The position numbers were made by a program, and so were the translations under genes. From the NCBI GenBank assembly GCA_964016885.1, contig OZ024743.1, forward strand, positions 31,186,001-31,250,000: DNA of 64,000 nucleotides. Direction: 5' to 3'. The stretch is from Eledone cirrhosa. Its lineage: Eukaryota. Every line of letters begins with the position of its first letter. The first letter of the stretch is position 1. Positions 6,485-47,744 of this stretch are shown piece by piece. The notes beneath the pieces are model-generated. The model ran no database searches. It worked only from the letters and a program-made list of their open reading frames with translations, and was not told the DNA's origin.

Positions 6485-7135
6485 TTATTCTTTAGGCTCA
6501 TTGAAAAACACTTCCCACTACAACACCGCTACCACAACATAATTAACAAAAATACCATCAAACTCTCTTACAGCACTACACCAAACTTCGCACTAAACAT
6601 CGTCTCCTCCAACAACAAAAAACTCAACCCCGATGGAAGAAATAACCTAAATAGCAGTGGAGAGCCGACCGGGAGGTGCAACTGTCCTGATCGATCCATT
6701 TGCCCACTCGACAACAGTTGCAGAGACCGTAATGTGATCTACCAGTGCAACGTGAGGACGGACACCTACAACAAAGCTTATATAGGGGTAACCGCATGTG
6801 ACTTCAAGACCCGGCTATACCAACACAGACATACCTTCCGAAACCCGGCCCGGCGTCACGCCACTACACTCTCGGGCCACATATGGGACCTCAAGGACAA
6901 CAACATTACCTATGATCTCACTTGGAGATTACTGTCCAGAGCCAACTCTTACACGGGAGGACGCCGTCCGTGCAATTTATGCTCGGAGGAAACTTTACTA
7001 ATGCTGTTTTCGACGGACCAACTCCTAAACAAGAAAGATGAGCTGGTTACTGCATGTAAACACAGATTGCGTAGGACTTACCTCGCCCTCATACCCCATA
7101 ATAACCCGGGGGGGGGGGGTAGACTAGGGCTATAA
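6485..7135 (+). pseudogene. PLE ORF C-terminus: RT thumb/linker + GIY-YIG endonuclease (5'-truncated, frame open)
   Basis: In-frame LIEKHFP..IINKNTIKLSYS, a CNCPDRSICPLDNSC linker, VIYQC..AYIGVT..FKTRLYQH, CNLCSEE, LLNKKDELVTACKH. Clade (Naiad/Nematis-type) uncertain. Confidence 0.88.
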
Positions 7136-7877
7136 CACCCCAATTGCCGATTTTGTAATGGGTAACCCCTGCTTGCCAAGGGAGACGTAAGATCTTCTTT
7201 TATTCTTGTATCGCTTCCTCTATATTTCCTTCTTCCCCCATCCCTCCCTAGTCCTTCTACCCCAGTTCTTTTTTCTTTGTCGGCGTCTTTTTCTCGCCTA
7301 CCCGAGGCAGCTCCTCTGCCGCTTGTACGCTCAGTACCCCCACCCCCTCCCCTATTATATGATAGATTTGGTGGACACCGCTTTTTATAGCAGTTGTGTT
7401 AGACCTCCGATACTTGCCCCCTTATCCGACAGCTGCACCTTTTTTCCGTGCCTTCTATATTTCTTAGTGGCATCTTTGCTTTAATTTCTCGTTTATTCAG
7501 TATTTTTTTCTTCTCTTTGCTTTGGGGCGGGGGGGATTCTGATTTAATTTTCCGTATTTTACTTTTACTTCGTACGAACTTTCATGTAGCTTGTATAAGA
7601 ACTTTTGTAGCGTGGCGGTACCCTTAGAGTTAGCATTAGTATATTTTTTTCGGGACTCTGAATTAGTATTTCGTACTAGTTTACGTTTCTGCACTGGGTG
7701 GTTGCTGGCCTTGTGCCTGGGGTAGAAACCTTTATTAATTATTTCGTGGTAGTTTCTTTAGTATTTTGGGCCCCCCTTGTTGACCCGTCATCGTATGATA
7801 TACGTACTTATACCTCTTAAAAGGGTTCCTTCTTATACCGTCCCACCAAGTTTATTTATTTATTATTATTATTCTTT

Positions 7878-8726: not shown

Positions 8727-8886
8727 TTCTCTTTTTTTTCTTTGATATCATACTCTAATATTTGAGAGCATTGAGTGCTCAAACGGCCTACCGCATACGG
8801 ACCCTTTAAGCATTCAACATCAATTATATATATATATATATATTTGTTTTGCGAGGTTTTTGATATGAAATCGTGTGTCGAAACAA

Positions 8887-9061
8887 ATATTGTTATACTT
8901 AGCGAGGGTAATATTGTTGTAATAATATTTCCAGAAATAATAACAGAACACACTTCCTGTTTGGTTGATTTTCGCTTCTGTATATGTTATATCTCCACAG
9001 TGAGTGTGTTCTGTTATTATTTCTGGCAATAAAAAACAACAATATGACCTTCCCCAAGTAT

Positions 9062-11454: not shown

Positions 11455-14400
11455 TATACGTGGTTTTGTCTTTGCGCGTAATTGTTCTCAATTGTTCTCT
11501 GGATGGGGAGGGGTAAGAGGGGTGGAGGAGGGATGGTGTGAGGATTCCAGAGGCTGAGTGTGTATAGGTAGGGGTACGCACGTGTGTGTTGGTGTTTATA
11601 CGTGTTGTGGATGTAGGTGGCGTGGTTCAAAAAACATTGTGAGTGTATCCCGTGGGTAAGTTCCTAAGGTAATTCGAGGAGTGGGCGATGAGGTGCCGGA
11701 TATTTTTCATGTTATGGAGTGGATAGCTGGAACGATGAGCGGTGGTGTGTAATTCCTGTCTGTGGTGGTCGGAAGTGGGGAGATGTGGGGTGCGGGCGCA
11801 GCAGGAAGTGTTCAGAGGGTCAAGGCAGGATGAAGGCAGAGCAGTAGAGGAGAATAACAGGTGGAGAAAGTCAGTGTGTGGTGAGGACTGTGCGTCTGTG
11901 TGTGGAGGTGCGTTGGACAGGGGAGAAGATGGGTAGGTGTGAAAGGTGGAGTTGGGAGGGGGTCATGTGAGGGATGGGGCATGTATTAGTAGAGGTGTTA
12001 GTGAGATGTGTGTGTGTGTGAAGGGGTGTGGGTGGAGCGGGAAGAGGGAGTGGGAGAGAAAAGCTATGGGATCGGTGGAGGGAGTGGAGTGTACTTATGT
12101 GTGTGTGCGTGTTTGGATGAGTTTGTTTGTTGTAAAGGGGGTGTTAGTGAGTGTTAGTATACGGGTCGTGGGGAAAGGGTTGAATGCGGGTGTGTTAGTG
12201 GGGGTTAGTGGTGGTTGGGGTGTAGAGTGGGTGGGGTTAGTGGTGGTATTAGTGCGTGTATATAGGTGGGTGTGTGCGTGATAGGGGGAGGGCTGGGGGT
12301 GTTAGTATTGTTAGTTGGGGGAGCGTGGACGGGGGTGGGGTGGGGGTGATAGTATTGTTAGCTACGGGGTGGGCCAAGAGGGCGGGCGGTGAAAAGGAGG
12401 AGTGTGTTAGTGGTGTTAGTGGGGGATATGTGTGTGTGTGTGTACGGGCAGGGCGGTTGAAGGCTAAAGGAATAGGGGTGGGGAGTTCAGGCCGGGGTGA
12501 GTGTGGGTCTGTAGGTTGAAGATGGTGTGTTGTTCTACCGTGAGGCGGGTGGCGGGTGTTCTTTGGCATTGGAGTAGGCCACAGACTGTGAGGTGGTGGG
12601 CGGAATTTTTAGGGGAGCCAAAGTTGCGAGCGTTGGGGGAACTCCGGCCGAGACGAATATCCCGGAGGTGTTCAGTGAAATGGTCAGCCAGGCGACGTCC
12701 AGTCTGTCCGACGTAGGTTGCGCTGCACTCCGTGCAGGAACTCAATAGACTAGGTTGGAGGAGGTGCAGCGGAAGGCGTGCCGGGTGAGAGAGAGTGGCT
12801 GTTGGGACCCTGGAAGGTGGTGGTGTTGTTGATGTGGGGGCAGGTGTAGCAACGAGGCCTGGAGTAGGGAGGTGAACCGGGGGTAAAGAGCGTGGGTTTA
12901 GGGGGCAGGGAGCTGCGGACGAGGAGGATACGGAGTTTGCGTGCGCGTTTGTAGGAGGGGAGAAGTGGGGCTGGGAATATGTAGGAGGTGGAGGGGTGGG
13001 ACTGGAGGGGGCGGAGGATGCGGAGGATGGAGCGGTGGAGGGGTAGGGTAGAGGGGTGGTAGTGGATGGGGAAGGGGAGACGGTGGGTGGGTATGCGGTG
13101 GCGTGGGGTGAGGGTGGTGGAGCGGTGGACAGCACGGGCGCGAGTGAGGGCGGTGTGGACGAGGGAGGGGGTAAGCTCTGCGAATGAAATGGCTGACTAG
13201 GAAAAGGGCCTGGGACTCAAAGTCAGCATCTCGGCTGCAAAGGCTGCGGATCCGGAGGAGTTGGGAGTAGGGATAGAGTGGTTTGTGTGTATGGGTGGGA
13301 GGAGGTGAAGTCGAAGTAGGAGTGGGAGGAGGTCGGTTTGAAGAAGGTGGAGGTGACGAGGGAACGGTGGGCGGTGTGGTGGCGACGGAGATGTCTAAGA
13401 ACTGGACGTGGGTGGTGGAGATAGAGGTGGTGAAGTGGTGCGAGGGGTGGAAGGAGCAGAAGAAGGAGAGAAAGGAGTCGAGCTGTTCGCGGGTGAGGGT
13501 CGTGGCTCCGATACTGTCGTCGATATAACGACTGTACAGTTCGGGCGTGGGGTCGCTGTACTGGGCAAAGATTTGGGCCTCAACATGGCCAACGAAAAGG
13601 TTGGCATAATTTGGGATCATTCTCTTGCCCATGGCTACCTCCGTGACCTGTTGGTAAAACTCACCCGAGAAGAAGAAGCAGTTGAAGGTGAGGACCAGCT
13701 CGGCGAGGCGAAGGAAGATGGAGGGTGTAGGTGATGGGGGAGGGGCCAAAATCGAGGTAGTGCCTGAGGGCACGTAGGCCGTCAGCGTGGGGGATGATAG
13801 TATAAAGCGACTTGATATCTAGGGTGAAGAGGAGGGCGTGTGAGACGCGTGGGAAAGTGAAGGAGTCGAACAGTCGAAGGGCGTGGTTGGTGTCGGAGAT
13901 GTGGGAGGGGAGGGTGGTGGCGAGGAGGGCGAGGATCGAGTAAATAATGGCGGTGATGAGTTCGCTGGGGCAGTTGCAAGTGGAGACGTTGGGGCGGCCG
14001 GGGTTGTCGGGTTTGTGGAGTTTGCAGAGTAAGTAGATAGTAGTGGTGCGGGGGTGCGGACGATGAGGTGGGAAGCGGTGGGAGGGAGGAGGCAACTTGT
14101 TGTTGGTAGAGGGGTGTGGTGTCAGAGGGTAGCGGGCGGTAGAACAGGCGGTTACGGACCTGCCTGAGGGCTTTTGCCGTGTAGCGGTCAGCGCGTCAAA
14201 CCCCCACGGCGCTTCCCTTGTCCGCCGGTTTGATGACGATGTCATCTCGGCTACGGAGAGAGCGGAGTGCGAGGAGTTCGCCCCGTGAGATGTTATGCCG
14301 TTTGGACCGGTGGCGGAAGTCGAAGCGATTTAATGCGCTACGGCAGGCGTCCACGAATGTGTCCAGGGTTTTAAATTGCTCTGGTACCGGCATCGAAGAC

Positions 14401-14740
14401 GATGGTTCGGCCGAGGGCGAGAAACGGGTCTGGGGTGTTCGGAGCTGGTGGCGTTTGATGAAAATGTGCGGTGCACGAACCGCTCCTCTTCTGTTCAGGT
14501 GCGGAACTCGTTGCTGTGCGGAGTGTGGGGTATGAAGCGAGGGCCTCTACTGAGAAGTGAACGCTCAGGTGGGAAGATGGGGGTGTCAGGGGGTATGGTG
14601 ACAACACATGGGGAGGTAGGGTGAATTATGCTGTGGTAGGGGGTGAGGTGGAGAAGGGGTAGGGTTTGGTGGACGTGGGTGTGTGGTGGAGAGTGGTGGG
14701 GATGGATGGTAGTGGTGTATGGGGGTTACAGGGATGGGCG
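11455..14740 (-). mobile_element. Decayed Penelope-like element, Neptune-like (RT + C-terminal GIY-YIG)
   Basis: Minus-strand fragments DDIVIKPADKGSAV, KLHKPDNPGRP, LFTLDIKSLYTIIPH, FYQQVTEVAMG..PNYANLFV, YSRYIDD, QFLDISV, PYSQLLRIRSLCS, CTECSATYVGQTGRRL..EH, EQHTIFNLQTHTHPGLN. Frameshifted; long C-rich 3' region; ends approximate. Confidence 0.88.
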
Positions 14741-20124: not shown

Positions 20125-23100
20125 AAAGGAAGACGGCGAGACCATCTGCACAATGGACTCAATCGACAACCGGATCAGTTCCACACGTGACAGCAACTGT
20201 TCGACATAGCTCCACAAGTCAGCAATGCTCCATCACTGAGCGAGTACGTGCAGAACGGTTTCGTCGCAATGCGCGCATCTCGGACAGGCTCGGCTGACGG
20301 CACTTCCGTGCCTGTAGAGCTTATCTTGAACCGGCAGCGCTCCCCGGTAGCACTGCCAGGCCGGGAATTTTCGGAAGTTATCCATAGGCCCCGGGCTGAA
20401 AATTCTCCGGAAGAGAGCAAGCAGCTGATCTTCTTCGACGCCCAGGATCTCTCCGAGAACGTCGTCGCTCTTCCCCTCCACTAGTCCTCTATAGAACGCC
20501 GAGATGGATGTTCCACCGATACTGGTGCCCAACTGGGAGAGGGCAGTGAGCGCCTGGAGACATTCCCAGCGCTATCCCTCCGTCTTTTTCTGATCCAGGA
20601 CTGCAGCTCCGTCAAGGAGACGAGCTGTGGGAAAATGTGCCTGGAGAACGGCGACCACACCCGTTCACCATCAAAGAAGCACCAGAGATGTCGCAGCCTC
20701 AGCGCATGTTTGGGCATCATCAGCCATGGCATGCCCAGTCCTCCACGCAACGGGTGTTGACAGCAGATGGATCGTCTGACCTTGGGAGCGCGTCCCTTCC
20801 ACAAAAAGCGGAAGAGGAGGCGCTTCATTTTGGTGAGAGTTGGGCTGAAGCAAAGGACGACGGTGAGGCGGTAGCAGATGACGGATGCGATGTACGCATT
20901 CGCCACTTCCGCCCGGCCTTTCAGGGACAGCTTCCTCTCAGCCTATTTCTGGGTGATGGAGGCCACCCTGCTCGTCACTTCGTTCCAGTTTTTCTCCATC
21001 TGGGAGTCCGGTCCGAACCAGACCCCGAGCAATTCAACCGGTCGGTCGGTCCAACGCCCCACGACGCTGTCGGACGGCATGGACTTGCCTCTCCAGGTGC
21101 TTAGCTGCAAGCCCACCGACTTTTCCTGGTTTATCTTTGCTCCTGTCACCGTTTTGTATTCCTTGAGAGCGGTGGCGAGCATCTGGACGTGTCTGGTGCT
21201 CGACACCACCACGGTGACGTCGTCAGCGTAAGCCGACTCGCATTCCCCCATCCTAGTTTGCGTGGGACGCCCCTCATCGCCCCCAGTTTCTGCAGTAACG
21301 GCTCGAGAGCCAATACGTACAAGAGGGACGAGAGGGGACAACCCTGGCGGACTGAGCGCATGATGCTGAACGGCTACGACAGGTGACCGTTCACCATCAC
21401 AACTGAGCAGATGTCACTGTACATTGCTGCGATCCAACGCCTGAAAACAGGCCCGAAACCGGATGCCTCGAGGACCGCCGCCAGGTACCGATGGTCGACC
21501 CTATCGAATGCTTTGGATTGATCCAAGTTGATCAGGGTCCCACCCATGCCAGGTTCCTTAACCACCCTCTCTATGATGTATCGCATGAGGTGGAGGTTTT
21601 CGTGTATGGATCTGTCCGGGATGGCGCATGTCTGCGCCTCTCCCACCAGACCCTTGACGACAAGCGCCAACCTCGATGCTAACACCTTGGTCAAAATCTT
21701 GAACTCTGCGTTTAGCAGGTTTATGGGCCTGAAATTATCAATAACATCCCCCTTGTTTGGGTCTTTTCTCAGCAGCGCTACTATAAATGCATGAAGCTCG
21801 TAGGGCAGACCATCCAAACCTGGCGATTTACCTCTTGTGCAGTTAGCCATCGCTTCCCGTATTTCACCGGCTGTTATTGGCTTTTCGCAACACTGTGCTG
21901 CGGTCGTCGAGAGCCGAGGCAGTCCGTCGAGATATGCACTGAAGTCCATATCCCGATCCGGGCTGCCGCCGCTGCCGAAAAGTTCAGCAACGTGCTGCTG
22001 AAAAGCTTCACACATCCGCTCTGGTTCGAGCATCACGCACCCGTTTTGTTCAGACAAAGACCGAATTGTGGCTTTATTGCCACGTCGCGCCTCTGCCACC
22101 CGGGCCCATTGGACGCTTTTGTCCTCTCGTATTTCAGAGCACGCGCTCTAGCTCTGACAACACAGCCTTCGTGTTTTGCGTTGAAGAATTGGTCGAGTGC
22201 CAATCTCGCCGCAAGCACGTCAGTTGCGATGCCTGTCCTAAACGCCTCTTCTAGCTTTCTGACTAACTCTCCCTCTACTCTATTTCCCTCTATCACTACT
22301 CCTTTGCTAAACCTAATCGACTCTACTTTAATTGCCCTTTTCAGGGCGAACCACCACCTGTTGTTGACGACCGCTCCCGTCAACGCCCGCTTAACTAATA
22401 CGCTAATCCGGTCTCTGTAGGCCTTGCGCGACGGGAAAGACGCGTTCAGCTTCCAGTAACCAGGCCCTTGTCTATGAAGTCTGTCTATGTCGATCTCACA
22501 GATCACAAATTTGTGGTCTATGTAGTCGACTATTTTAAAATGTGGACAACTTATACTAACCTTATCTAGTTCCCTGCAGAATACCCTATCTAGATACGAT
22601 CTGGATGACCCGATGCAGTTTGTCCATGTCCACATTGGCACATTCGGGTGATCCAGTCGATACCTGTCAGACCGTTCAACACGTCTGAGCAGGTTGGTGA
22701 GGCTCTTGCACCCTCCTCCCCTATCCACTAGCCCCACACGATCCCAGCGTGCATCCAAGATACCGTTCCAGTCGCCCACTAACACTAAAGAGCGGGACGT
22801 TCCATGAAAGGTCTCTAGACGTCTGAAGAAATCTGGCCGTCCTGCCCCTGTTGGGGCGTAGACGGCTACTAGCCTGAAAGCATTGCCTTCGCTGCCGATC
22901 ACGTCCAGCACCACCGACTTACTTTCTGGGTCCAGGAAGATGGCCCGTATCGCGAGATCCAAGCCTCTCCGAAAAAGGACGGCAACCCCTCCCTCCGATC
23001 CTGGACGGCTGGGAGATGCGTATACATCGTAGCCGCCGAAGATCGGTGCGAAGGCCCGTGTCTCGGAGATTCTGGTTTCACTGATGGCCACCACATCTAT

Positions 23101-23193
23101 GTTTAGTGACCTGAGATCATTGAGCAGGTGACCCTGCTTCCAAGATGACCCCAGGTCACGTGCATTTATACTGCCTATTCTGAGTACAGCCAT
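20125..23193 (-). pseudogene. LINE A ORF2 (APE endonuclease-RT), frameshifted
   Basis: ORF pieces 22033-23229, 21374-22099, 21146-21361, 20943-21341, 20481-20906, 20233-20532. Confidence 0.88.
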
Positions 23194-23225
23194 GTTGGAT
23201 GAGAAACGGGGCAACTGAGAAAGGA

Positions 23226-25207
23226 TCACTTACATCGTTCGTGTGGTGAAGGGACAGTAGAGCCGTCCTTTTCGCTGGTCATGGGTGTTTCCAAGAGGAT
23301 GTCAGTGTATATCCTCTTGGTAACAGTTCCTCTGAACTCTCCAACTGCGTTGGTGAATTTTGGTTTTAAAGTTTTGTACTGTTCTAATGAGATTTCGATG
23401 ATGCTTATGTTTGTCGGGAGAGTTCTTGGTGTCGGTGGGGTGTAGTAATGTTTTTCCGTGATGTCTGTGTGCTGCTTTATATATTTTATGAGTTCTTTTT
23501 TTGCTATGTTTATGGCTGTGTACTTTTTGGGGGGCGTGGTGATTTTGTTGCGGTTTTCTTCTTGTTGCTGTTTGGTGTGTGTGTCTTGTTGTGTTTGCGT
23601 TGTTGGTGTTTGTGGTTGTGTTGCTGCAAGTTTCCTTGCTGCCTTTACCCCTCTTTGTATGCCTTCGCTTTTGGAGGGTGAATCTAAGGGTTTTTTTGTT
23701 TTTGTTTTTTGTTTTTTGTTGCAGACTGTTTGCTTCGTCACTCCCGCCTCAAACTCCATGTCGGATTCTGTGGCGTCTGGGAGGGGTATGTGCTCCACGA
23801 CTGTGGGTGGTGGTAGTGGAACCCTCTTTGTTGTTGGTGTAGCCATTGGTGTTGCCGCTACTGATGATGCTGCTGTATTTATCCGTGGCCTTGGTACGGG
23901 TGCTACGGACGTTGCCCTCCTACTCACCGTGGAAGGGGCTTCTTCGTTTGTTGCCTGTCCTGCTCTTGGTAGCAGCGGACCAGGTACTGGAAGGAGAGGG
24001 TCCCCCTTCGGTGTCTTCTGCGGGAAAAAGGCCCTGAGGTGACCTTTCGACCCACAGAGATAACATTTTGGCCGTCTTCCTTCTACACTTATAGGGAGTT
24101 GGAGTCCTTCCTCAAAGTCTATGATATAGGGGATAACCTCGATACATTCCTGGTCAGTTTGTATAAGCATGTGCATGCCTATACCTGACCAGCCAAGGTA
24201 GGGCACGTCGGGTGGGACCTGGGTCACTTTGACCCTCACAATTTTCTGCCCATAGTAGGAGGGCACCAAGACTAACTCCTCACTATTTACGGTTTCCAAA
24301 GAGTGAGACTTTGCTTCCTGGGGGGTGGCGAAAAGTATGTCTACTGTGGCGTACTTTCTGCCTCGGGTGATGTGGGATTTGCGTGCCCAGAGGCACCCCG
24401 AGGCCTTTTGGATTTGAGCCTCCGTGGCTCTCTCCACTCGATGTGAGATTTTTCTTACGGTGCGGTAAGTCACCGTTCGTAGCTGCTGGTCCTTGAAAAA
24501 ATCGGGTGGAGGTTTCAGGGAAACTCTATTTGCGCTTCTTGTCACCATGGCCCTTGCGACTGCCATCTCCTCCTCTGTGACTAACACTGTCTCGATATTT
24601 AGGGCAACACATGCAAAAGAAGTGGTCTCTTTTTCAGCAGCTCCACTATTGCTGCCGCTACTGGTCTTACTGGTGGTGTTGAGGTCCCTATTACAGGTAT
24701 CGGTGTCATTGTTGTTATTTTCGCTGGTACAGTTGTTGGTGTTGTTTTCGTTGATACTGTTGCTGATGTTACTGTTATTGTGGCTGTTGTTATTATTGTT
24801 GTTTTTATTGATAGTTTCCTACTATTATTGTTGTTGTGGCTGTTGTTATTGTCATTGTTATTGTCGTTCTCGACCTTACCGCTGTTATTTTTGTTATTGT
24901 CGTTCTCGACCTTACCGCTGTTATTTTTGTTATTGTCGTTCTCGACCTTACCGCTGTTAATTTTGTTATTGTCGTTCTCGACTTCACCGCTGTTATTTTT
25001 GGTGTTGTTGTTGGTGATGTTGTTGGTCTTATTGTTGGTGTTGTTTGTGTTAGAAATATTTGTTAAATCTGTAACAATCTTTTTTCCCTTTGTAATATTT
25101 TCGTTTATATTTACCTCCGCTGGAACGCTGTCTTGTTGACATGCTGATAAAGTTTCCCTCTCTCTGTGTTGTCTGACAGCGCTCTCTCTCATTTTTGTGT
25201 TATCCAT
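23226..25207 (-). pseudogene. LINE A ORF1 (gag-like; Asn/Thr-rich N-terminus, CCHC-like knuckle), frameshift near 24590
   Basis: ORFs 24599-25207 and 23226-24587; CYLCGSKGHLRAFF; homologous to ORF1 of copy B. Confidence 0.8.
24858..25000. repeat. 36-bp coding minisatellite x4 inside LINE A ORF1 (NNSGKVENDNNK)
   Basis: TTGTCGTTCTCGAC recurs at 24861, 24897, 24933 and 24969. Confidence 0.9.
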
Positions 25208-25422
25208 GTTGAAATTTTTCCAAAAATATTTTTACATAAATACGAATACGACACCCCGTAAAGGGGTGCCGTATTATTTACTAGTGAACCCTTGTATTAG
25301 GTGGGTCACTTCTTCTAAACTTTTATCAAATTTAAAACTTGAATAAAAGGTTTAGAACGGTTGAAAAAGGGGTAAAACGTTGAAAAATACTGGAGGCGAT
25401 AAGATGCGTGGCTTCACCAACC

Positions 25423-25457
<35 letters not shown>

Positions 25458-25473
25458 CAATGATAATAATAAT
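25423..25473. repeat. (AAT)n tract between LINE A 5' end and LINE B 3' end
   Basis: Direct reading. Confidence 0.95.
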
Positions 25474-25724
25474 GATTTCTTTATTAACCACACGGGTTTA
25501 CATAAAGTAGACATTAAGGACAGTGAAAGACAATACAGGATGGTACAAATGGGCATTTCTGCGTGTAAAGAACAAAGACAGAGGTAGTAACAAAAAAATA
25601 ACAATGAAAAATTCCCCAATAGGGGGGAGACTTCGGAGGGAGATTTGTGGAGAAAGCCCAGTAAAAGGCCACAGTGACCCTGACCACCAAGGCAAGTGCC
25701 CTCTCCCAGCTTTCCACCTTTAAT

Positions 25725-28700
25725 TTACAGATACGTACTCAGAGTAGGCCTATTCACTCGGGCCATTCTTGCTTCTCTCACCCATCTTTCAACAAAATGC
25801 TGGGAAGAGAGCACTTCCCTCTCTACCCTGATTTCCCTTTTCAAATGAAATTTGAAAAAGTTGATCAGGGCATCACCGAAGAGGTAAGTGCTCGTCTTCA
25901 GCCCTTTCAAACGTGTCCACCATACTATCTCTTTCGCCATGGCCACCAGACAGATAGAAACTGCCTGCCCTTCCCGGCTAAAGGAAGAGGGCGAGGCAAT
26001 CCTCACGATGGACTCAGATGATAGCCGGATCCGTCCTACACGCGACAGCAGGTGTTCGACATAAACCCAAAAGTCAGCAATTTTCGGACACTGGACGAGT
26101 GCGTGCAAGACGGTTTCGTCGCCCTGCGCGCATCTCGGACATGCCCGGCTGACGGCACCTCCATGCCTGTAGAGTTTATCCCGAACTGGCAAGGCTCCTC
26201 GGTAGCACTGCCAGGCCAGAGATTTCTGGAAGTTGTCCATAGGCCCCGGCCCGAAAGTTCTTCCGAAGAGATTCGCTAGTTGTTTTTCGTCGACGCCTAG
26301 AGTTGCCCCAAGTACGTCGTCGCTCTTCCCCTCCACTAATCCTCTATAGAACACCGAGGTGGAGTTTCCACCGATCACATTCCCGATTGGTCGAGGGCTG
26401 TGAGCGCCTGAAGACATTCCAGTCTCAAAGCGCTCCCTCTCGGTCTTCGCTTGACCCAGGACTGCAGCTCCGTCAAGGAAACGAGCTGGGAAAATTCGTG
26501 TCAAGCAAACGGCGACCACACCTGATCACCGTAGAGGAAGAGGTGGAGATGTCGTAGCCTGAGCGCGTGTCTGCGCATCATCAGCCACGGCATTCCCAGC
26601 CCTCCATGTAGCGGGTGTTGACAGCAGATGGACCGCCTGACCATCAAAGCGCGTCCCTTCCACAAAAAGCGAAAGAGAAAACGCTCCAGCGCTGTCAGGC
26701 GGGGCTTAGGACAAGGTACGACGGTCAGGCGGTAGCAGATGACTGACGCGATGTACGCGTTAGCCACCTCCGCTCGACTTTTCAGGGATAGCTTCCACTC
26801 CGCCCATTTCACCTCGTCCCAATTTTTGTCCGTCTGGAGGTCCGGACCGAACCAGACCCCTATCAATTTAACCGTCCGTCCGTCCAGCGTCCGACGACGC
26901 TGTTGGACGGTGCTGAGCTGCATGCCCACTGACTTTTCCTGGTTGATCATTGCTCCTGTCACCGCTTCGTATTCTCTTAGTGTAGTGCCGATCGCCTCGA
27001 TGTGTTTGGCGTTCGACACCACTACGGTGACATCGTCCGCATATGCTGACACGGATCATCCGCATCCTAGTTCGCTCGGGACGACCCTCAACGTCTCCAG
27101 TTTGTGTAGTAATGGCTCGAGAGTAAATACGTACAAGAGGGACGAGATGGGACATCCTTGGCGGACCGAGCGCATGATGTTGAACGGTTCCGAAAGGTGA
27201 CCGTTCACTCTCACCACAGAGCAGATGTCGCTGTGCATGGCAGCGATCCAGCCTCTGAAGACGGGCCCAAAGCCAGCCGCCCTCATGACTGCCGCTAGGT
27301 AAAGATGGTCGACCCTATCGAAAGCTTTCGACTGATCTAAATTGATCAAGGACCCACCCGTGCCAGGTTCGCTAGCTACCCTCTCTACGATGTATCGCAT
27401 GAGTTGGAGGTTGTCGTGGATGGATCTGTCGGGAATGGCGCATGTCTGCGCCTCTCCCACCAGACCACCAACGACAAGCGCCAACCTCTTTGCTAGCACC
27501 TTGGCCAAAATCTTGAACTCTGTGTTTAGCAGAGTTATGGGCGGAAATTATCTATGTTATCCCCCTTGTTCGGATCCTTTCTCAGCAGTGCCACCGCTCC
27601 TCGGCTCACAGAACTGGGAATTCTCCCGTTCTGTTGCCAGTTGCAGTAGACGTCCGTCAAGAGGCCTCCGAACAAGTCTGGCATCTGTACATTAAAGTTC
27701 ATAGGGCAAACCATCCAAACCAGGCGATTTACCCCTTGTGCAGCCAGTCATTGCCTCCCTTACGTCAGCGGCTGTTATCGGCTTTTCGCAACACTCCGCC
27801 TCAGTGGCCGAAAGCCGCGGCAGTCCGTCGAGGTAGACACTAAAGTCAATCCCTCGACCCGGCCCACCCCTGCCCCCAAACAGCTGAGGGAAGTGTCGCT
27901 GAAAAGCTTCACACATTTGCCCGGGATCGAGTAGCATGCGCCCGTCATGGTCTACCAAAGACCGGATCGTGGATTTGTACCCACGACGCGCCTCCGCCAC
28001 TCGGGCCCATTGAACGGCTTTCGTCCCCTCGTGGCTGAGAGCACGCACCCTAGCTCTGACAATGCAGCCTTCGTGCTTTGCATTGAAGAATTTGTCAAGG
28101 GCCAAGTTCGCCGCAAGCACGTCGGTCGCAATGCCTTTGCTAAGCGCCTCGACTAATTTTCTAACTAGTTCTCCCTCTGCTCTATTTTTCTCTATTGCTA
28201 AAGCCTTACTAAACCTAATCGATTCTATTCTAATCGCTCTTTTCAGAGCAAACCACCACTTGTTGTTGACGATGGCCCCCGTCAACGCCCGCTTAACTAG
28301 TTCGCTAATCCGGTCTCTGTAGGTCTTGCGCGCTGGTAAGGACGCGTTTAGCTTACAGTAGCCGGGTCCTCGTCTATGAAGCCTATCTAAGTCAAGCACA
28401 CAGATCACGAATTTGTGGTCCGTGTAGCTGACTATCTTGAATTATGGACAGCCTATGCTAGACCTATCTATTTCCCTACAAAATACTCTATCTAGATATG
28501 ATCTGGATGACCCTATGCGATTTGTCCAAGTCCACATTGGCACATTCGGGAAATCCAATCGGTACCTGTCAGACAGTTCAAAACGCCTGAGCAGGTTGAT
28601 GAGGCTCTTTCACCCTCCACCCCTATCCGCTAATCCCACAGAGTCCCAGCGTGCATCTAAGATCCCGTTCCAGTCGCCCACTAACACTAAAGAGCGGGAC

Positions 28701-29093
28701 GTTCGAAGAAAGGTCTCCAGACGCCGGAAGAAATCAGGCCGCCCTGCTCCTGTGGGGGCATAGACGGCCACTAGCCTGAAAGCTTGCCCGTTTCCGCTGG
28801 TCACGTCCAGCACCACCAACTTACCCTCTGGGTCCAGGAAGATGGCCCGTATGGCGAGATCCAAACCTCTCCGAAAAAGCACAGCAACTCCTCCCCCCGA
28901 TCCAGGACGGCTGGGAGATACGTACACTCGTAGCCGCCGAAGATCGGTACGAAGGCCCGTGCTTCGGAGATCTGGTCTCGCTGATGGCCACTACATCTAT
29001 GTTTAGTGACTTTAGGTCGTTGAGCAGGTGACCCTGCTTCCATGACGACCCCAAGCCACGCGCATTTATGCTGCCTATTCTGAGTGAGGTCAT
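25725..29093 (-). pseudogene. LINE B ORF2 (APE-RT-CCHC), frameshifted
   Basis: MTSLRIGSINARGLG, LVGDWNGILD, GKSPGLDGLPYE, LDQSKAFDRVDH, SAYADDV, CPRCAQGDETVLHALVQC. Confidence 0.88.
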
Positions 29094-29128
29094 GTTTAAA
29101 ATAGAGTGGAAAAGATGGGAAAGACCAC

Positions 29129-31274
29129 TTACCGTACTTTTGGTAGAGGAGGGATGGTTTTTACATCCCTTTTCACTTGATCGTCTGGTGAAGGGACCGT
29201 TGAATCGTCCCTTCGGCTGGTCGTCGGCTCTTCTAAGAGAATGTCTGAATATACTCTTCGATTGATAGTTCCTCCTAGGTCCCTGAAATCACCAACTGCG
29301 TTGGGGAATTTCATTTTAATGTTTGTGTATTGTTTTTCTGCTATTTTTAGCAGTCTTATGTTAGTTGGCGTTTTGATTGGTGCTGGTATTATGTAGTCGT
29401 GTTGTGAAATGTCTGTGTGTTCAATTTTGTAAGTCATCAGTTTCTTGTTGTGTGTATTTATTGCCGTGCATTTGTTTTTCTGGGGGTGGGGTGGGGTTGT
29501 GCTATTTTCTTGTCGTTGTTGCTGGGTGTGTGTGTTTTGTTGTTGTGTTTGCGATGTTGGTGCTTGTGCTGGTGGTGTTTAAGGTGTTGTTGTTGTTGGC
29601 GGTGGGGTTGTCGCCGGAGGTGATGGTGGTGCTAGTGTGGGTGGTGATGGTGTTGGTGGTGTTGCTGCTGTGAGTCTATTTGCAGTAGCCTTTACCTTTT
29701 TTTCATTTCTTTCCTCCCTTTTCGAAGGCGACGATGCGCTGCTTCTGCGTTTGTGGTTTCTTACGACCTTTTGCCATCCCTCTCCTACCTCACACTCCAT
29801 GTCTGATTCTCTGAGGTCGGGGAGGTGTAACAGCTCCACTCTTTCACTTGTTGTTGTTGGTGATGTTTGCACTGGAGTCTCTGTTGCAGCTGCATTTGGT
29901 ATTACTGTTGTTGTTGTTAATACTTCCACTGCTGCTGCTGTTTTTGATTTCCCTGGCGTGGATATGGGTGCCACGGACCTATCGTTCCTTGTTGCCGCTT
30001 GTCCTGTTGCTGATAGCCGTGGAGCCGGTTTCGGAAAGAGGGAGGTTTTCTCATTTCACAGGGTCTTCTCGTTGTAGAAAGCCCTGAGGTGAGTCTTCGA
30101 TCCACAGCGAAAGCATTTCGGGCATTTTCCCTCAACACTTATGGGCATTTGAGTGCCGTTATCGAAGTCTATCACATCCGCGATAGATTCGATGCACTCC
30201 TAGTTGGTTTGGATTAACATCTCAATGGAGGTGCCGACCCAATCTTCTCTTACTTTTTTTCTGTACTTGCAGTACAGTTTTTTGTCTTCGATTCCGACGA
30301 GGACAGACGCGGCCAGCCAAGAAGGGACCATCCCGGGTGGGGGGACGTGGGTCAGTTTGACCCTCACAATTTTTTCCCCGCAGTAGGAGGGCACCAAGAC
30401 CATTTCCTCGCTCCTTAGGGTCACTAAGGATTGAGCCTTTGCCTCCTGTGGTGTGGCAAAAAGCACGTCTACGGTGGCATATTTCTTGCCTCGGGTGATG
30501 TGTGTTTTCCGCTGCCACACAGACCCTAAGGCTTTTTGTATTTGAGCCTTTGTGGCTCTTTCAACCCTACGGGATTGTGTGCTTAATGTACGGTATGTGA
30601 CTTTACAGTGCTGTTGGGTTTCGAAAAATATTTCGCCTGCCTTGCAGATTGCTCGGTGTCCGGTTTTCGTCACCATCTTCTTCGCTTCCTCTAATTCCTC
30701 ATTTGTTATGAGGATGGTTTCCAGGTTCTTTGCGATACCTGCAAACGAGATTGGTTTTTCTTTGCTGCTGTTGTTGTTGTTGTTGTCGTCAGAGCTGCTG
30801 TTACTTTTGTTGTTGCTGCAGGTACTACGACTACTGCCGCCGCAGCTGTTGCTGTGGTTGTTGTTGTTGTTGCTGATGCTGCTGTTGTTGTTGCTGCTAA
30901 TGCTGTTGTTGTTTATGCTGCTGTTGATGTTGTTGCGGCTGCTACTGTTGTTTTCCTTGTCACTGTTGCTGCTGCTGCTGCTGCTGTTATTACGGCTGCT
31001 ACTGCTATTATTCCTGACGTCAGATGAATGAAATGGGTTTTCGTATTTCCCGCACACCTTTTTCGTCGTTGTCGTCGTCGTCGTGTAGAAATCTTGCTCG
31101 CTTTTGCACGTGATTTTTCTTTTCTGGCGTTGCTTGCGAAAGAGAAGGGAGGGAGAGAGACACATTTAGAGAAGGGAGGGAGAGAGAAAATCTTCTCTCT
31201 GCTGTAGTGACGATTGAGGAAGAAGAAGACGGAATGAGTGGGAGTGACCTATGAAAATTATTTTTCGTAGCCAT
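29129..31274 (-). pseudogene. LINE B ORF1 (gag-like; Asn/Ser microsatellite-encoded N-terminus)
   Basis: ORF pieces 31020-31307, 30200-31165, 29579-29974, 29129-29437; shares RVERATxAQIQKA..HITRGxKYATVD with copy A. Confidence 0.8.
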
Positions 31275-39163: not shown

Positions 39164-41198
39164 CGTATGTGTGTGTGTCTGTGTGTGCCTGCGTGTGTAT
39201 ACGTAATCACTAATACCATAACAGATTTAAATTATATGCTTATGCTTCCGCGTTGTATAATCGAACAAGGGCCTATTTCAATGAAGTTAAAATCATTGCC
39301 CCCTCAGACCCAAGGAATCAAGTTCATACTCGTAATTGTATTGCATGCAGACTGATCAATATTAATTCGCAACAACATAAAACCAAGCATCATCATCGTT
39401 ATATTCATCATCACTATCATCGCCATCATCATCATTAACATCATCATCGTCATCATTGTATCATCATCAACATCACCATCATCTCACTCATATTTCCCCC
39501 ACACATAATTCCTTAAAATAGTACTAAACATCATCGTCTTTAGTAACACCACCCTCTTCTTACACATCATCACTACCTCTGAATGTACCATCCTTTTTCT
39601 TTCCTTTCCATGGCTTCGCTATTACCATAACAATAACTGAAATAATATCGATAACAACTGCAGTAACTTCTGTAACATATATAGGCCTGATAGTGATTCC
39701 ATTTAATAACCAGTTTCGACTGTTTCATTGGAATGTTTAATAAATATCGAATCAGTTTCAGTGTACGCAGCGACATTACCAGATGTGGTTTGTAAAGTGT
39801 GATGCAATATACAGTTCAATCTATAGATACGTACAGGAATGTTTTAGTTTTCAGCTCTTTCTCTAATTTTAATTAAACTCTTATTTTATTAAGATAATTT
39901 TCTTAGGATACATTTCGGAAGAAAAAGTGCTGTTTCGTTTCTGAATTAATCAAGAATAATAATATGGGTGAGATTCAGTGCAAAATGTTGATGACACATA
40001 TGACAACTTAAATGTACAAATAGCAATGTTCTATTTCGTTATAAGAAAAAAAAAATGAAAATGTTAATTTAAAATTAATTGCTTCTGCAATTACGAAAAT
40101 ATCATTATGCCCCTAAATTGTAATGGAAAAAGTTTAATGCAGAAACTTTGAATTTTATGCAAAGAATACATGATATATGTATTCTAGTATATGACCCATT
40201 TTTTCACAAAAAGTTAACGTGATATTTTTTATTGAATAATAACTATTATATCCAGAAGAATTAATTTATAGAATAGTGACATAATTTGGAACAGAAAATA
40301 TTCGTGAAATAAAACGAAATGCGTAGTCCCTATATTTTAATAGAGAGAAAATAGATGTACGTTTCAACAATCTGTAATTCAAGCAATCTCTATACTGATT
40401 ACATGTTTGTAGATATTCTAATTCATATCATTGTGGTGCCTGTGACGTTCTATTGATTTAATAATTCGACTTTGAATTGCAAATATCTTTAGCTTAAAAC
40501 TATTTCCAACTCTATTGTCAATAAGACACAGTTTACCATGATGTAGAGTGATAAATATAAAGTTTCGATAAGCGCTGCAATTGCCATGACGAATATACTT
40601 CATAACAAGGAATCTACAACTTAACGTAAAAAGCAGGTATGTATCTGAAGCTTGCAAACTACGCCCTGCATTAACGCCAACATCTTTCTTTCATTTCTCA
40701 GTGTTATTTACAAATATCACTGTATAATGTCTACGGTTTCAACAACTACTAGTTTTCACAGTGTTCATACTAATTCGCAAATTCATTTTATACTTTGAAC
40801 AATATTTTAATGTGTATGAAATTTTGCGACATTCAGCCGCAATTTGCAGTTGAATATATATCTAGGAAAATATGTATATAAATAGACACGTTAAACTCCT
40901 AAACATATAAAATGCTCGTATTTACTTGGAAATTGGAAAGCAAATTAGGAATTCTCTTAAACTATATATACATAAACAATTAAGTTAAAAATGTACATCC
41001 ACATATGTATACTGAAATACTAGTATGCATATGAATACACACACGTGTACATATGTAGATGTACCGAGTTTTTCACTGGACACTTTACTGTGAGTGTCCA
41101 GCTATTCTGTATGTAAACACACAGACAAACCGGTTTTTAGAGTCATACTGGTTTTCGAGGAAACACCTTTCCTCTATTCTCCAGAAAGCCAGACAAGG

Positions 41199-41243
41199 AA
41201 TATTGGACTAGTTTCGATGTTGTTACATCTCATCAGCAATATT
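41199..41243 (-). ncRNA. Type I hammerhead ribozyme
   Basis: Reverse complement of AATATTG-CTGATGA-GATG TAACAA CATC-GAAA-CTAG-TC^CAATATT. Confidence 0.9.
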
Positions 41244-41664
41244 TACCTATCTTCCGCCCTTTCTAGAGAATCGTAAAAGCACATATCGTTATATGCTTTT
41301 TCTATGAAAATTAGTAGTGGGCAGACTAATTTGCATAGAGCGTGAGTACGTACCGGTTCAGCGGAGACGATAAAAACAAATAACGAAACGAAATTAAATT
41401 TCGTTTCGTTTGTAACTCACTTTTGTATGACTGACGCTTAAACAATTAAGTTAAAAATGTACATCCACATATGTATACTGAAATACTAGTATGCATATGA
41501 ATACACACACGTGTACATATGTAGATGTACCGAGTTTTTCACTGGACACTTTACTGTGAGTGTCCAGCTATTCTGTATGTAAACACACAGACAAACCGGT
41601 TTTTAGAGTCATACTGGTTTTCGAGGAAACACCTTTCCTCTATTCTCCAGAAAGCCAGACAAGG

Positions 41665-41709
41665 AATATTGGACTAGTTTCGATGTTGTTACATCTCATC
41701 AGCAATATT
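41665..41709 (-). ncRNA. Type I hammerhead ribozyme
   Basis: Identical copy, 466 bp downstream. Confidence 0.9.
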
Positions 41710-42130
41710 TACCTATCTTCCGCCCTTTCTAGAGAATCGTAAAAGCACATATCGTTATATGCTTTTTCTATGAAAATTAGTAGTGGGCAGACTAATTTGC
41801 ATAGAGCGTGAGTACGTACCGGTTCAGCGGAGACGATAAAAACAAATAACGAAACGAAATTAAATTTCGTTTCGTTTGTAACTCACTTTTGTATGACTGA
41901 CGCTTAAACAATTAAGTTAAAAATGTACATCCACATATGTATACTGAAATACTAGTATGCATATGAATACACACACGTGTACATATGTAGATGTACCGAG
42001 TTTTTCACTGGACACTTTACTGTGAGTGTCCAGCTATTCTGTATGTAAACACACAGACAAACCGGTTTTTAGAGTCATACTGGTTTTCGAGGAAACACCT
42101 TTCCTCTATTCTCCAGAAAGCCAGACAAGG

Positions 42131-42175
42131 AATATTGGACTAGTTTCGATGTTGTTACATCTCATCAGCAATATT
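42131..42175 (-). ncRNA. Type I hammerhead ribozyme
   Basis: Identical copy. Confidence 0.9.
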
Positions 42176-42596
42176 TACCTATCTTCCGCCCTTTCTAGAG
42201 AATCGTAAAAGCACATATCGTTATATGCTTTTTCTATGAAAATTAGTAGTGGGCAGACTAATTTGCATAGAGCGTGAGTACGTACCGGTTCAGCGGAGAC
42301 GATAAAAACAAATAACGAAACGAAATTAAATTTCGTTTCGTTTGTAACTCACTTTTGTATGACTGACGCTTAAACAATTAAGTTAAAAATGTACATCCAC
42401 ATATGTATACTGAAATACTAGTATGCATATGAATACACACACGTGTACATATGTAGATGTACCGAGTTTTTCACTGGACACTTTACTGTGAGTGTCCAGC
42501 TATTCTGTATGTAAACACACAGACAAACCGGTTTTTAGAGTCATACTGGTTTTCGAGGAAACACCTTTCCTCTATTCTCCAGAAAGCCAGACAAGG

Positions 42597-42641
42597 AATA
42601 TTGGACTAGTTTCGATGTTGTTACATCTCATCAGCAATATT
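42597..42641 (-). ncRNA. Type I hammerhead ribozyme
   Basis: Identical copy. Confidence 0.9.
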
Positions 42642-43135
42642 TACCTATCTTCCGCCCTTTCTAGAGAATCGTAAAAGCACATATCGTTATATGCTTTTTC
42701 TATGAAAATTAGTAGTGGGCAGACTAATTTGCATAGAGCGTGAGTACGTACCGGTTCAGCGGAGACGATAAAAACAAATAACGAAACGAAATTAAATTTC
42801 GTTTCGTTTGTAACTCACTTTTGTATGACTGACGCTTAAACAATTAAGTTAAAAATGTACATCCACATATGTATACTGAAATACTAGTATGCATATGAAT
42901 ACACACACGTGTACATATGTAGGTGTCCAGTGAAAAACTCGGTACATCTACATATGTACACGTGTGTGTATTCATATGCATACTAGTATTTCAGTATACA
43001 TATGTGGATGTACATTTTTAACTTAATTGTTTAAGCGTCAGTCATACAAAAGTGAGTTACAAACGAAACGAAATTTAATTTCGTTTCGTTATTTGTTTTT
43101 ATCGTCTCCGCTGAACCGGTACGTACTCACGCTCT

Positions 43136-43143
43136 ATGCAAAT
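43136..43143 (+). promoter_or_regulatory. Octamer ATGCAAAT in each full 466-bp unit (also 43602, 44068, 44547 on +; 41329, 41795, 42261, 42727 on -)
   Basis: Exact octamer ~90 bp upstream of the hammerhead, conserved in the diverged unit at 184; function inferred. Confidence 0.5.
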
Positions 43144-43228
43144 TAGTCTGCCCACTACTAATTTTCATAGAAAAAGCATATAACGATATGTGCTTTTACG
43201 ATTCTCTAGAAAGGGCGGAAGATAGGTA

Positions 43229-43273
43229 AATATTGCTGATGAGATGTAACAACATCGAAACTAGTCCAATATT
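43229..43273 (+). ncRNA. Type I hammerhead ribozyme
   Basis: Stem I AATATTG/CAATATT; CTGATGA 43236-43242; stem II GATG/CATC with loop TAACAA; GAAA 43257-43260; minimal stem III with palindromic ACTAGT; GUC cleavage after 43266. Confidence 0.92.
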
Positions 43274-43694
43274 CCTTGTCTGGCTTTCTGGAGAATAGAG
43301 GAAAGGTGTTTCCTCGAAAACCAGTATGACTCTAAAAACCGGTTTGTCTGTGTGTTTACATACAGAATAGCTGGACACTCACAGTAAAGTGTCCAGTGAA
43401 AAACTCGGTACATCTACATATGTACACGTGTGTGTATTCATATGCATACTAGTATTTCAGTATACATATGTGGATGTACATTTTTAACTTAATTGTTTAA
43501 GCGTCAGTCATACAAAAGTGAGTTACAAACGAAACGAAATTTAATTTCGTTTCGTTATTTGTTTTTATCGTCTCCGCTGAACCGGTACGTACTCACGCTC
43601 TATGCAAATTAGTCTGCCCACTACTAATTTTCATAGAAAAAGCATATAACGATATGTGCTTTTACGATTCTCTAGAAAGGGCGGAAGATAGGTA

Positions 43695-43739
43695 AATATT
43701 GCTGATGAGATGTAACAACATCGAAACTAGTCCAATATT
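43695..43739 (+). ncRNA. Type I hammerhead ribozyme
   Basis: Identical copy. Confidence 0.9.
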
Positions 43740-44160
43740 CCTTGTCTGGCTTTCTGGAGAATAGAGGAAAGGTGTTTCCTCGAAAACCAGTATGACTCTA
43801 AAAACCGGTTTGTCTGTGTGTTTACATACAGAATAGCTGGACACTCACAGTAAAGTGTCCAGTGAAAAACTCGGTACATCTACATATGTACACGTGTGTG
43901 TATTCATATGCATACTAGTATTTCAGTATACATATGTGGATGTACATTTTTAACTTAATTGTTTAAGCGTCAGTCATACAAAAGTGAGTTACAAACGAAA
44001 CGAAATTTAATTTCGTTTCGTTATTTGTTTTTATCGTCTCCGCTGAACCGGTACGTACTCACGCTCTATGCAAATTAGTCTGCCCACTACTAATTTTCAT
44101 AGAAAAAGCATATAACGATATGTGCTTTTACGATTCTCTAGAAAGGGCGGAAGATAGGTA

Positions 44161-44205
44161 AATATTGCTGATGAGATGTAACAACATCGAAACTAGTCCA
44201 ATATT
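44161..44205 (+). ncRNA. Type I hammerhead ribozyme
   Basis: Identical copy. Confidence 0.9.
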
Positions 44206-44639
44206 CCTTGTCTGGCTTTCTGGAGAATAGAGGAAAGGTGTTTCCTCGAAAACCAGTATGACTCTAAAAACCGGTTTGTCTGTGTGTTTACATACAGAAT
44301 AGCTGGACACTCACAGTAAAGTGTCCAGTGAAAAACTCGGTACATCTACATATGTACACGTGTGTGTATTCATATGCATACTAGTATTTCAGTATACATA
44401 TGTGGATGTACATTTTTAACTTAATTTTTTAACTTAATTGTTTAAGCGTCAGTCATACAAAAGTGAGTTACAAACGAAACGAAATTTAATTTCGTTTCGT
44501 TATTTGTTTTTATCGTCTCCGCTGAACCGGTACGTACTCACGCTCTATGCAAATTAGTCTGCCCACTACTAATTTTCATAGAAAAAGCATATAACGATAT
44601 GTGCTTTTACGATTCTCTAGAAAGGGCGGAAGATAGGTA

Positions 44640-44684
44640 AATATTGCTGATGAGATGTAACAACATCGAAACTAGTCCAATATT
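44640..44684 (+). ncRNA. Type I hammerhead ribozyme
   Basis: Identical copy; spacing is 479 bp because of the 13-bp duplication. Confidence 0.9.
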
Positions 44685-45045
44685 CCTTGTCTGGCTTTCT
44701 GGAGAATAGAGGAAAGGTGTTTCCTCGAAAACCAGTATGACTCTAAAAACCGGTTTGTCTGTGTGTTTACATACAGAATAGCTGGACACTCACAGTAAAG
44801 TGTCCAGTGAAAAACTCGGTACATCTACATATGTACACGTGTGTGTATTCATATGCATACTAGTATTTCAGTATACATATGTGGATGTACATTTTTAACT
44901 TAATTGTTTAAGCGTCAGTCATACAAAAGTGAGTTACAAACGAAACGAAATTTAATTTCGTTTCGTTATTTGTTTTTATATATACATATATATATATATA
45001 TATACATATACACACCCACACACACACACACACACCCACACACAC

Positions 45046-47082: not shown

Positions 47083-47186
47083 TATAAATATTTAGGTTCT
47101 CGACATATGTCGGGTGAGTATACACAAATAAATGTACTCAATACATTGATTATAGGCATCTTCATTATATCTAGAAATGACTCATT

Positions 47187-47266
47187 CAGGACTAGAACTG
47201 TTTCATTCGTGAAACATCGTCAGGGCTTCTTGACGATTTCTCACGAATGAAACAGTTCTAGTGCTG
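47187..47266. repeat. Small inverted pair of degenerate hammerhead-like cores
   Basis: ACTAGAACTGTTTCATTCGTGA..ATCGTCA pairs with TGACGAT..TCACGAATGAAACAGTTCTAGT. Minus strand CTGACGA..GAAAC..GTC; stem I is lost at the centre. Confidence 0.55.
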
Positions 47267-47275
47267 TAGAAGCGC

Positions 47276-47353
<78 letters not shown>

Positions 47354-47744
47354 GTATATACATATATTTATATATTTATATATAGGTGTGTGTGGGTGGA
47401 TGCATATGTATATATATATATATATATATATAAATATAGCTAGATATAGCGATGAACTTAATTATGTACACACACATACACTCCGATTTCTTTGAAAACT
47501 TAGTCAACTGTACTTATATAGTGACAGAAAGGACATCAAGTATGAAAGAAAGTAGAATTCTCTTGAAATACCATGGATCAAGAGCATGGTAATCGCATGA
47601 AATTTAAAACGTAAATCAACATCTCAAAACATTACTCAATTAAATTATTTTCACGTATTTCTCTATTTCTTTAAACATTTACTATTTATTAACTAAATAT
47701 TTCCATGCCATAAAGAGGGAAAATTACACACTCACCACACCCCA

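Follow-up and report, generated by a model that had tools for sequence, protein, structure and literature searches.

In this study, we analysed a stretch of 64,000 nucleotides from Eledone cirrhosa (contig OZ024743.1 of assembly GCA_964016885.1, positions 31,186,001 to 31,250,000 of the forward strand), in the following called the window, which harbors at 40973-44979 an array of 466-bp units with one hammerhead ribozyme each. The array is a single, very young insertion of a dispersed family and not an artefact. Judged from the sequences of the array and its relatives, it is very probably a non-autonomous retrozyme lacking long terminal repeats (non-LTR retrozyme) that is mobilised by a Penelope-like element (PLE), through the joining of two target-primed cDNAs at their distal ends. 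It is the combination of two fixed start sites, a (TA)n target, a target-site duplication and a haplotype common to both arms that leads to this proposed mechanism. These four features had escaped the first-pass annotation of the window, which had described a young, palindromic, retrozyme-like array.

The 466-bp units are arranged in two divergent arms with four hammerheads on each strand, eight in all. As the first-pass annotation had reported, and as the core positions on both strands confirm, the eight hammerhead cores are identical and the units are spaced by 466 bp, once by 479 bp. Units are numbered from the first base past the predicted cleavage site (u1 = window position 43267). The array consists of the following features.

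40963..40974, + strand: left copy of the 12-bp target-site duplication, with a 2-nt overlap with the arm end
40973..42922, - strand: left arm, 4.2 units; outer end at start site A (u232-233), inner end at u148
41206..41236, - strand: hammerhead core
41672..41702, - strand: hammerhead core
42138..42168, - strand: hammerhead core
42604..42634, - strand: hammerhead core
41257, 41723, 42189 and 42655, - strand: locus-specific G at u415 (C in the family), - units
42919..42926, no strand: central arm junction without exact overlap or filler; three of the four next bases match both arms
42923..44979, + strand: right arm, 4.4 units; inner end at u123, outer end at start site B (u302)
43215, 43681, 44147 and 44626, + strand: locus-specific G at u415 (C in the family), + units
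43220..43281, + strand: hammerhead of type I whose stem I is extended; the predicted cut lies after 43266
43267..43732, + strand: 466-nt monomer, the predicted, highly self-paired RNA unit from cleavage site to cleavage site
43702..43732, + strand: hammerhead core, cleavage predicted after 43732
44168..44198, + strand: hammerhead core, cleavage predicted after 44198
44427..44439, + strand: duplication of 13 bp in one of the units, immediately ahead of start site A; the cause of the 479-bp spacing
44647..44677, + strand: hammerhead core, cleavage predicted after 44677
44911..44979, + strand: 'tail' between A and B (u234-u302), at this end only; contains a 13-bp perfect hairpin
44977..44988, + strand: right copy of the 12-bp target-site duplication, with a 3-nt overlap with the arm end; runs into a TA/CA microsatellite

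On the minus strand the predicted cleavage positions are 42604, 42138, 41672 and 41206. Five of the six monomers that reach from cleavage site to cleavage site are identical and 466 nt long, and the remaining one measures 479 nt via the 13-bp duplication. This duplication is the sole length difference among the eight units of an otherwise uniform array, which agrees with the young age that had been proposed. In the longest pair of arms, complementarity is 100% over a length of 1,509 nt. The earlier description as a palindrome holds for the divergent inverted arms but not for mirror symmetry, since the arms differ in start phase (u148 and u123) and in end site (u233 and u302). The GC content of the array is 0.32-0.36. 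No open reading frame (ORF) of at least 100 aa overlaps the array, no reverse transcriptase (RT) or GIY-YIG ORF is present in unit or array, and Pol III boxes, TATA and AATAAA were not found within the 466-bp unit. Tandem, non-coding and dispersed type I hammerhead units are in line with the assignment as non-LTR retrozyme made before, and dispersed copies with target duplications of more than 4 bp, a feature of retrozymes, were found as well.

The ribozyme of the window possesses the CUGANGA and GAAA boxes, an NUH cleavage site, stems I-III and an open stem I, as defined for type I hammerheads. The cleavage triplet is GUC in the window and GUU in 26 of 107 loci. A search with the Rfam hammerhead models, which the first-pass annotation had recommended, gave zero matches at gathering score across the whole window; the best sub-threshold match was Hammerhead_HH9 (RF02275), which scored 38.9 bits (E=1.9e-8), the cut-off being 52. 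Its alignment covers the UA bulge of stem I, the core boxes and stem II, and type I topology, stem I bulge and loop II are alike in both. Together with the covariation across subfamilies, this alignment upholds the type I assignment. MicroRNA matches in the same sub-threshold scan lay far below their cut-offs and were rejected as hairpin noise. Helix III is a single A-U pair below a palindromic loop, CUAG; alternatively, it has two pairs and a 2-nt loop. The single-pair form matches the description of the axolotl hammerhead HHR_Amex1, whose helix III has one pair and a palindromic tetraloop and whose cleavage is poor in isolation but efficient in the dimer (Cervera & de la Pena, 2020, PMC7229834). 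The monomer folds with -156.8 kcal/mol (z=-8.5; 0 of 100 shuffles equally stable), and this minimum-free-energy fold puts helix III in the wrong register. Eleven core positions are invariant across about 106 loci. Among 32 ribozyme regions that are distinct, pairing is kept in 98.6% of cells, and three pairs, one of them in stem II, show compensatory changes, which represent few independent events since the sequences are kin. Thus, the invariant core and the compensatory changes suggest that the ribozyme fold is under selection. A subfamily in which stem II has U-A in place of A-U, a compensatory change, accounts for 20 of 107 loci (L095, L156 and L192 among them); this change is also present in both loci with two A ends (L192 and L193, see below) and dominates the ribozyme-spanning contig of run X5.

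The 31-nt core has 1,633 exact copies in the 3.0-Gb genome. Exact end-junctions into TA number 2,253 at the B end and 1,176 at the A end, a ratio that means little as the two search patterns differ in tolerance; reversed-pattern controls gave 0. The unit is also covered by contigs from runs labelled organism B and organism C. For the analysis of the insertion signature, we used 63 loci, comprising the 37 best-scoring ones, 25 from contig C1 in listed order and the window. Two fixed positions account for the outer arm ends, A (u228 or u233; u228-233) and B (u302), and both lead into (TA)n. In 38 of these 63 loci, divergent arms in -/+ order carry one A and one B end, and neither A/A nor B/B combinations occur (0 each). 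Another 40 loci anchored at a B end showed an A arm in 22 cases, a short A arm in five, no arm in nine and a B arm in none, while three leave the fetched stretch and one is of another kind. The 13 A-anchored loci showed a B arm (7), a short B arm (2), none (2), an arm leaving the stretch (1) and a compound arrangement (1). Among the listed C1 coordinates there are 31 A/B pairs, and the single apparent B/B case represents two insertions. Contigs of run X1, which may be the assembly's own sample, break into TA at u233 (4 contigs) and u302 (12 contigs). The back-to-back layout, presented earlier as undescribed, is therefore the routine insertion product of this family and is known for PLE copies (Craig et al., 2021, PMC8557442).

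The inner arm ends are evenly spread, and the cDNA arms span one to 16 units. Cleavage sites are reached by 143 arms, nine of which end within 10 nt of one (6.7 expected), and 342 crossings of cleavage sites were counted; the inner ends are random and indifferent to the cleavage site. Among 29 scored inner junctions (12 more with failed seeds were left out), 12 show an overlap of 1-5 nt, two are blunt and 15 contain 2-40 nt of filler or mismatched element sequence. Most target duplications are masked by TA sequence. They are informative in nine of the 37 loci with two arms, compared with a mean of 2.5 and a maximum of 7 in 300 permutations, and six of the nine, including that of the window copy, are 12-14 bp long. 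Within the 37 two-arm loci, the haplotypes of the arms differ by 10 mismatches in comparison to a permutation mean of 184 (minimum 94 of 10,000). Both arms thus derive from a common source sequence, and this agreement fits one molecule or two transcripts of one locus equally. Two fixed ends with a tail, an inverted 5'-truncated arm and a microsatellite target are also what is found in elements that depend on PLEs.

Based on these features, the following course of insertion is proposed. A tandem array would be transcribed, and adjacent hammerheads would excise 466-nt monomers, which might then be ligated to circles as in other retrozymes (PMC7229834). Given a helix III of one base pair and its palindromic loop, the hammerheads probably act as dimers. 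At the (TA)n target, a PLE protein would nick both strands about 12-14 nt apart, the distance given by the target duplications. Each free 3' end may then prime at its own RNA site, A or B, aided by TA complementarity over 2-4 nt; the fixed ends and the pairing of A with B are observed, and priming of this kind agrees with the biochemistry of a purified PLE protein (Frangieh et al., 2024, PMC11167929). Each cDNA traverses one to 16 units, runs past cleavage sites and stops at random, probably on a monomer circle in some insertions and on an uncleaved linear multimer in others. Finally, the cDNA ends would be joined via the short microhomologies or templated fillers seen at the junctions, leaving divergent arms within a target duplication. 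In the simplest reading, twin target priming is the default, in which the 3' overhangs of a staggered cut each start a cDNA and the two meet midway.

Potentially, the enzyme is provided by a Neptune-like PLE family, designated X, which is the best candidate for a partner, although we regard this assignment as tentative and somewhat short of an even chance. Family X has an intact ORF of 1,279 aa with weak matches to RVT_1 and GIY-YIG, and it carries a CX4CX2C linker, a feature noted for Neptune elements (PMC8557442); a PDB search gave a GIY-YIG homing endonuclease as sole match (E=0.13). Its two ends lie 60 nt apart and insert into (TA)n, and six of seven two-armed copies with both ends recognised are of the A/B type. 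An X-type A arm is joined to a retrozyme B arm at L036 and L177, in one case with fold-back filler, which would fit mixed templates in one complex. Junctions of the retrozyme with other PLE families are present at L040 and L164. Family X (L125:2700-6536 and genome-wide) is very abundant and, by its sequences, apparently active; its intact ORFs measure about 1,280 aa, the 84 copies that were scored are 98-100% identical, and a first look gave 47,971 candidates. Its end region contains a minimal hammerhead-like motif, both ends lie within the ORF start, and its insertions into (TA)n are divergent and two-armed. Another abundant PLE group, Y (L132-L143; 84,303 first-look candidates), has a GIY-YIG C-terminus and a hammerhead-like motif in the end region. 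A further PLE family is located at L160:402-2742, with a 780-aa open frame in L160, and a related RT fragment is joined to the retrozyme at L164.

Several observations weigh against mobilisation by a PLE as outlined above. Nineteen of the 63 loci are one-armed and six are irregular; several one-arm loci in fact have a second arm of merely 10-20 bp. Two true A/A loci, L192 and L193, occur among the first 100 listed A ends, so that a strict pairing rule was rejected; the A/B rule is strong but not absolute. One copy of family X (L123) is of the B/B type, and the chimeras at L036 and L177 could equally be deletions between neighbouring insertions. The similarity of the unit to the end regions of the PLEs X, X' and Y is not above that of shuffles (best 5/100), a comparison with three end regions in a genome that holds further PLE families. 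No ORF-bearing relative of the unit was found in the 63 loci, the 40 B-anchored loci or three flank extensions. With respect to the ribozyme, 62% of all unit positions are invariant too, which weakens the argument from core invariance.

Other origins of the array were considered. A DNA satellite, in which a solo unit is amplified by local unequal exchange, inverted by fold-back and homogenised by gene conversion from arm to arm, is improbable. Local expansion after insertion does occur, as block duplications in the older long arrays L076 (period 6), L184 and L098 indicate, and local amplification is preferred for tandem growth in the preprint of Li, Clavereau and Pollet (bioRxiv 10.64898/2026.07.22.740005). 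However, such a history leaves the two fixed outer ends, the A/B pairing, the target duplication and thousands of dispersed copies unexplained, and the scattered substitutions expected from it are absent in the window array. It is still less probable that a long interspersed nuclear element (LINE) mobilised the unit by L1-type twin priming or that the unit re-entered the genome in the form of extrachromosomal DNA circles. The window is rich in LINEs, and L1 twin priming, in work attributed to Ostertag and Kazazian in 2001, reportedly yields the same divergent geometry. On the other hand, the unit has neither a poly(A) or simple-repeat 3' end nor AATAAA, the second priming site does not vary in position, the opening of DNA circles would not be confined to two fixed sites, and PLE family X shows the same two-end pattern. 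An assembly or library artefact, such as a fold-back read or a collapsed repeat, is extremely unlikely. The near-perfect inverted arms and the contigs that cover u415 without the G would fit such an origin, whereas the arms are not mirror images, the unique flanks carry a target duplication, the layout recurs at dozens of loci with differing junctions, and both end types occur in contigs of run X1.

For the template of the cDNAs, it is tempting to speculate that one PLE complex primes two cDNAs, each on its own target strand and from its own start site, and that in the youngest copies, including that of the window, both cDNAs are rolling-circle copies of a single 466-nt RNA circle made by the ribozyme; in this full form the idea is possible but slightly more likely to be wrong than right. 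For the window copy itself, a monomer circle as template is mildly favored. G415 is present in 8/8 window units, whereas the other loci scored have C, and the genome-wide G415 pattern gave 11 matches, eight in the window and three on other haplotypes. Fixation of G415 in all eight units and the lack of a parent array in the assembly favor a monomer-circle template, and slow homogenisation is unlikely since the array is otherwise uniform. Similarly, G392A is found in 5/5 units of L085 and in no other multi-unit run, and a variant of L068 is fixed in 4/4 units, with four other multi-match loci on other haplotypes (multi-unit matches only). A contig joint that leads 466 nt back was rejected as evidence for circles, as the same joint occurs in tandem DNA.

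Alternatively, the same PLE insertion with twin starts might always use an uncleaved, linear read-through multimer, circles being at most a by-product. This alternative, which concerns the copying step only, has a substantial but clearly minor share of the probability. It would need a parent of the window copy with at least 4.4 G415 units, which is absent from the assembly; such a parent array may lie on an unassembled haplotype. Mosaic variants common to both arms are in register at five loci, L055, L058, L059, L068 and L083, and out of register at one, and the in-register variants speak against the circle as only template. The same holds for L088, where both arms carry about 480 bp of a foreign PLE end plus TA upstream of a crossed cleavage site. 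This is a 5' transduction that was copied to both arms. At L088, the inverted arms (1372-2169 and 6690-7487) comprise 798 bp each, are 99.5% alike and consist of the other PLE's end, TA and a part of the ribozyme element. The case for circles is further weakened as two of five locus-fixed variants tested, C328T (L082) and T217C (L093), are lineage-wide and were rejected as private variants, and as all contigs covering u415 read C (contigs drop rare variants). In vitro, cleavage was seen in only one of nine retrozyme dimers (bioRxiv 10.64898/2026.07.22.740005), and for PLE RNA cleavage was dispensable and unprocessed RNA was the main substrate (PMC11167929). However, linear copying alone can neither lengthen arrays nor fix a new variant in all units, as seen in the window (8/8), L085 (5/5) and L068 (4/4), for which no multi-unit parent of the same haplotype was found, and compensatory changes preserve the ribozyme fold. 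Template jumping on a linear monomer could fix variants, yet the predicted stops at u1 are not enriched. A permutation test for variants in register (p=0.003) mixes fixed and linked variants, and therefore the patterns at single loci are cited instead. Overall, these patterns suggest that both circles and linear multimers serve as templates in this family.

Long, satellite-like arrays of the 466-bp unit were observed at L098, L148, L162, L179 and L199. L098 (G000:C1:95650000-95659999) contains more than 21 units with 90% identity and recurring unit types, and the array extends past both ends of this 10-kb interval. L175 and L176, which have identical arm coordinates and lie 17.6 kb apart on C1, are probably a segmental duplication. 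Apart from the array, the window contains the following mobile elements, and Pfam gave zero matches for its four PLE-like fragments.

6446..7135, + strand: fragment related to PLE Y
8841..8916: short X-like end fragment adjoining (TA)n
12464..14546, - strand: degraded PLE-like RT/GIY-YIG element in several frames
20175..31165, - strand: two LINE copies that contain parts of the endonuclease and RT, with a first ORF of low complexity
47131..47432: Y-family end-region piece with a hammerhead-like motif at 47223 on the - strand

Which enzyme mobilises animal retrozymes and whether circles serve as templates are stated as open questions (PMC7229834; bioRxiv 10.64898/2026.07.22.740005), as is the way in which PLEs produce tandem and inverted insertions with a tail (PMC8557442). 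The retrozyme family described here is suited to address both, as it is young, has more than 2,000 insertions and two sharp start sites, and comes with an intact partner candidate of the same pattern. If the rolling-circle reading is true, the array would be direct genomic evidence of retrotransposition from a circular RNA, with a PLE as the driver in trans that has no sequence in common with the retrozyme, and the PLE arrangement of a tail at one end plus an inverted copy would be the default product of two-site priming. The copies of this family offer a test of copying from RNA circles, and paired A/B ends suggest a sequence-independent way of assigning retrozymes to PLEs.

Both retrozymes and their link to PLEs are already published, a PLE origin being argued in the preprint (bioRxiv 10.64898/2026.07.22.740005). 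Searches of the open-access literature revealed no paper that deals with this family, with retrozyme insertions of two arms or with the pairing of one start site per arm; no statement on the latter was found in PMC11167929 or the excerpts of PMC8557442. Likewise, the term 'inverted' is absent from the excerpts of PMC7229834, and 'tail', 'palindrom' and 'target site' are absent from those of the preprint. The insertion signature in a retrozyme was thus not found in the open literature. The window hammerhead presumably also resembles that of Schistosoma Sm-alpha in its type I topology, stem I bulge and loop II; the hammerhead repeats of Sm-alpha and of newt satellite-2 differ from the unit in sequence and length. 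The unit shares with metazoan non-LTR retrozymes the tandem, non-coding units of a few hundred bp with low GC and one type I hammerhead each, the dispersed multi-copy distribution, a self-paired monomer, co-occurring PLEs and the lack of an LTR organisation. Its size, considered unusual before, exceeds that of the known circles of 170-400 nt (PMC7229834), yet it lies inside the consensus range of 51-972 bp (bioRxiv 10.64898/2026.07.22.740005). Two divergent arms, fixed A/B ends, (TA)n targeting and duplications of 12-14 bp are not described for retrozymes in the excerpts of these two sources. Xenopus retrozymes match PLE pseudo-LTRs (pLTRs; bioRxiv 10.64898/2026.07.22.740005), and no pLTR homology was found for this unit. 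Chlamys elements such as MRC1 are non-autonomous and depend on PLEs, have pLTRs and insert as multiple copies arranged head to tail (PMC8557442); they differ in being green algal and mostly without canonical hammerheads, and generally resemble their autonomous partner at the 3' end, a likeness not found for the retrozyme. In PLEs, circular templates were proposed and ribozyme pairs on opposite strands noted (PMC4209133). PLE copies are 5'-truncated partial tandems, often plus an inverted 5'-truncated copy, with a tail of 30-40 bp that is often at one end only and with a bias for microsatellites (PMC8557442); the inverted pLTR and 3' extension are restated in PMC8969392. On AT-rich DNA, a purified PLE protein makes nicks in both strands and extends them, and its RT starts at two positions inside the RNA, between which the tail lies (PMC11167929). 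In comparison to endonuclease-containing (EN+) PLEs, the retrozyme has no ORF, a tail of about 70 nt instead of 30-40, a canonical instead of a minimal hammerhead, and arms of up to 16 short units. In common with EN+ PLEs, it shows truncated tandems, an inverted arm, a tail at one end, a microsatellite target and a hammerhead upstream of two RT start sites.

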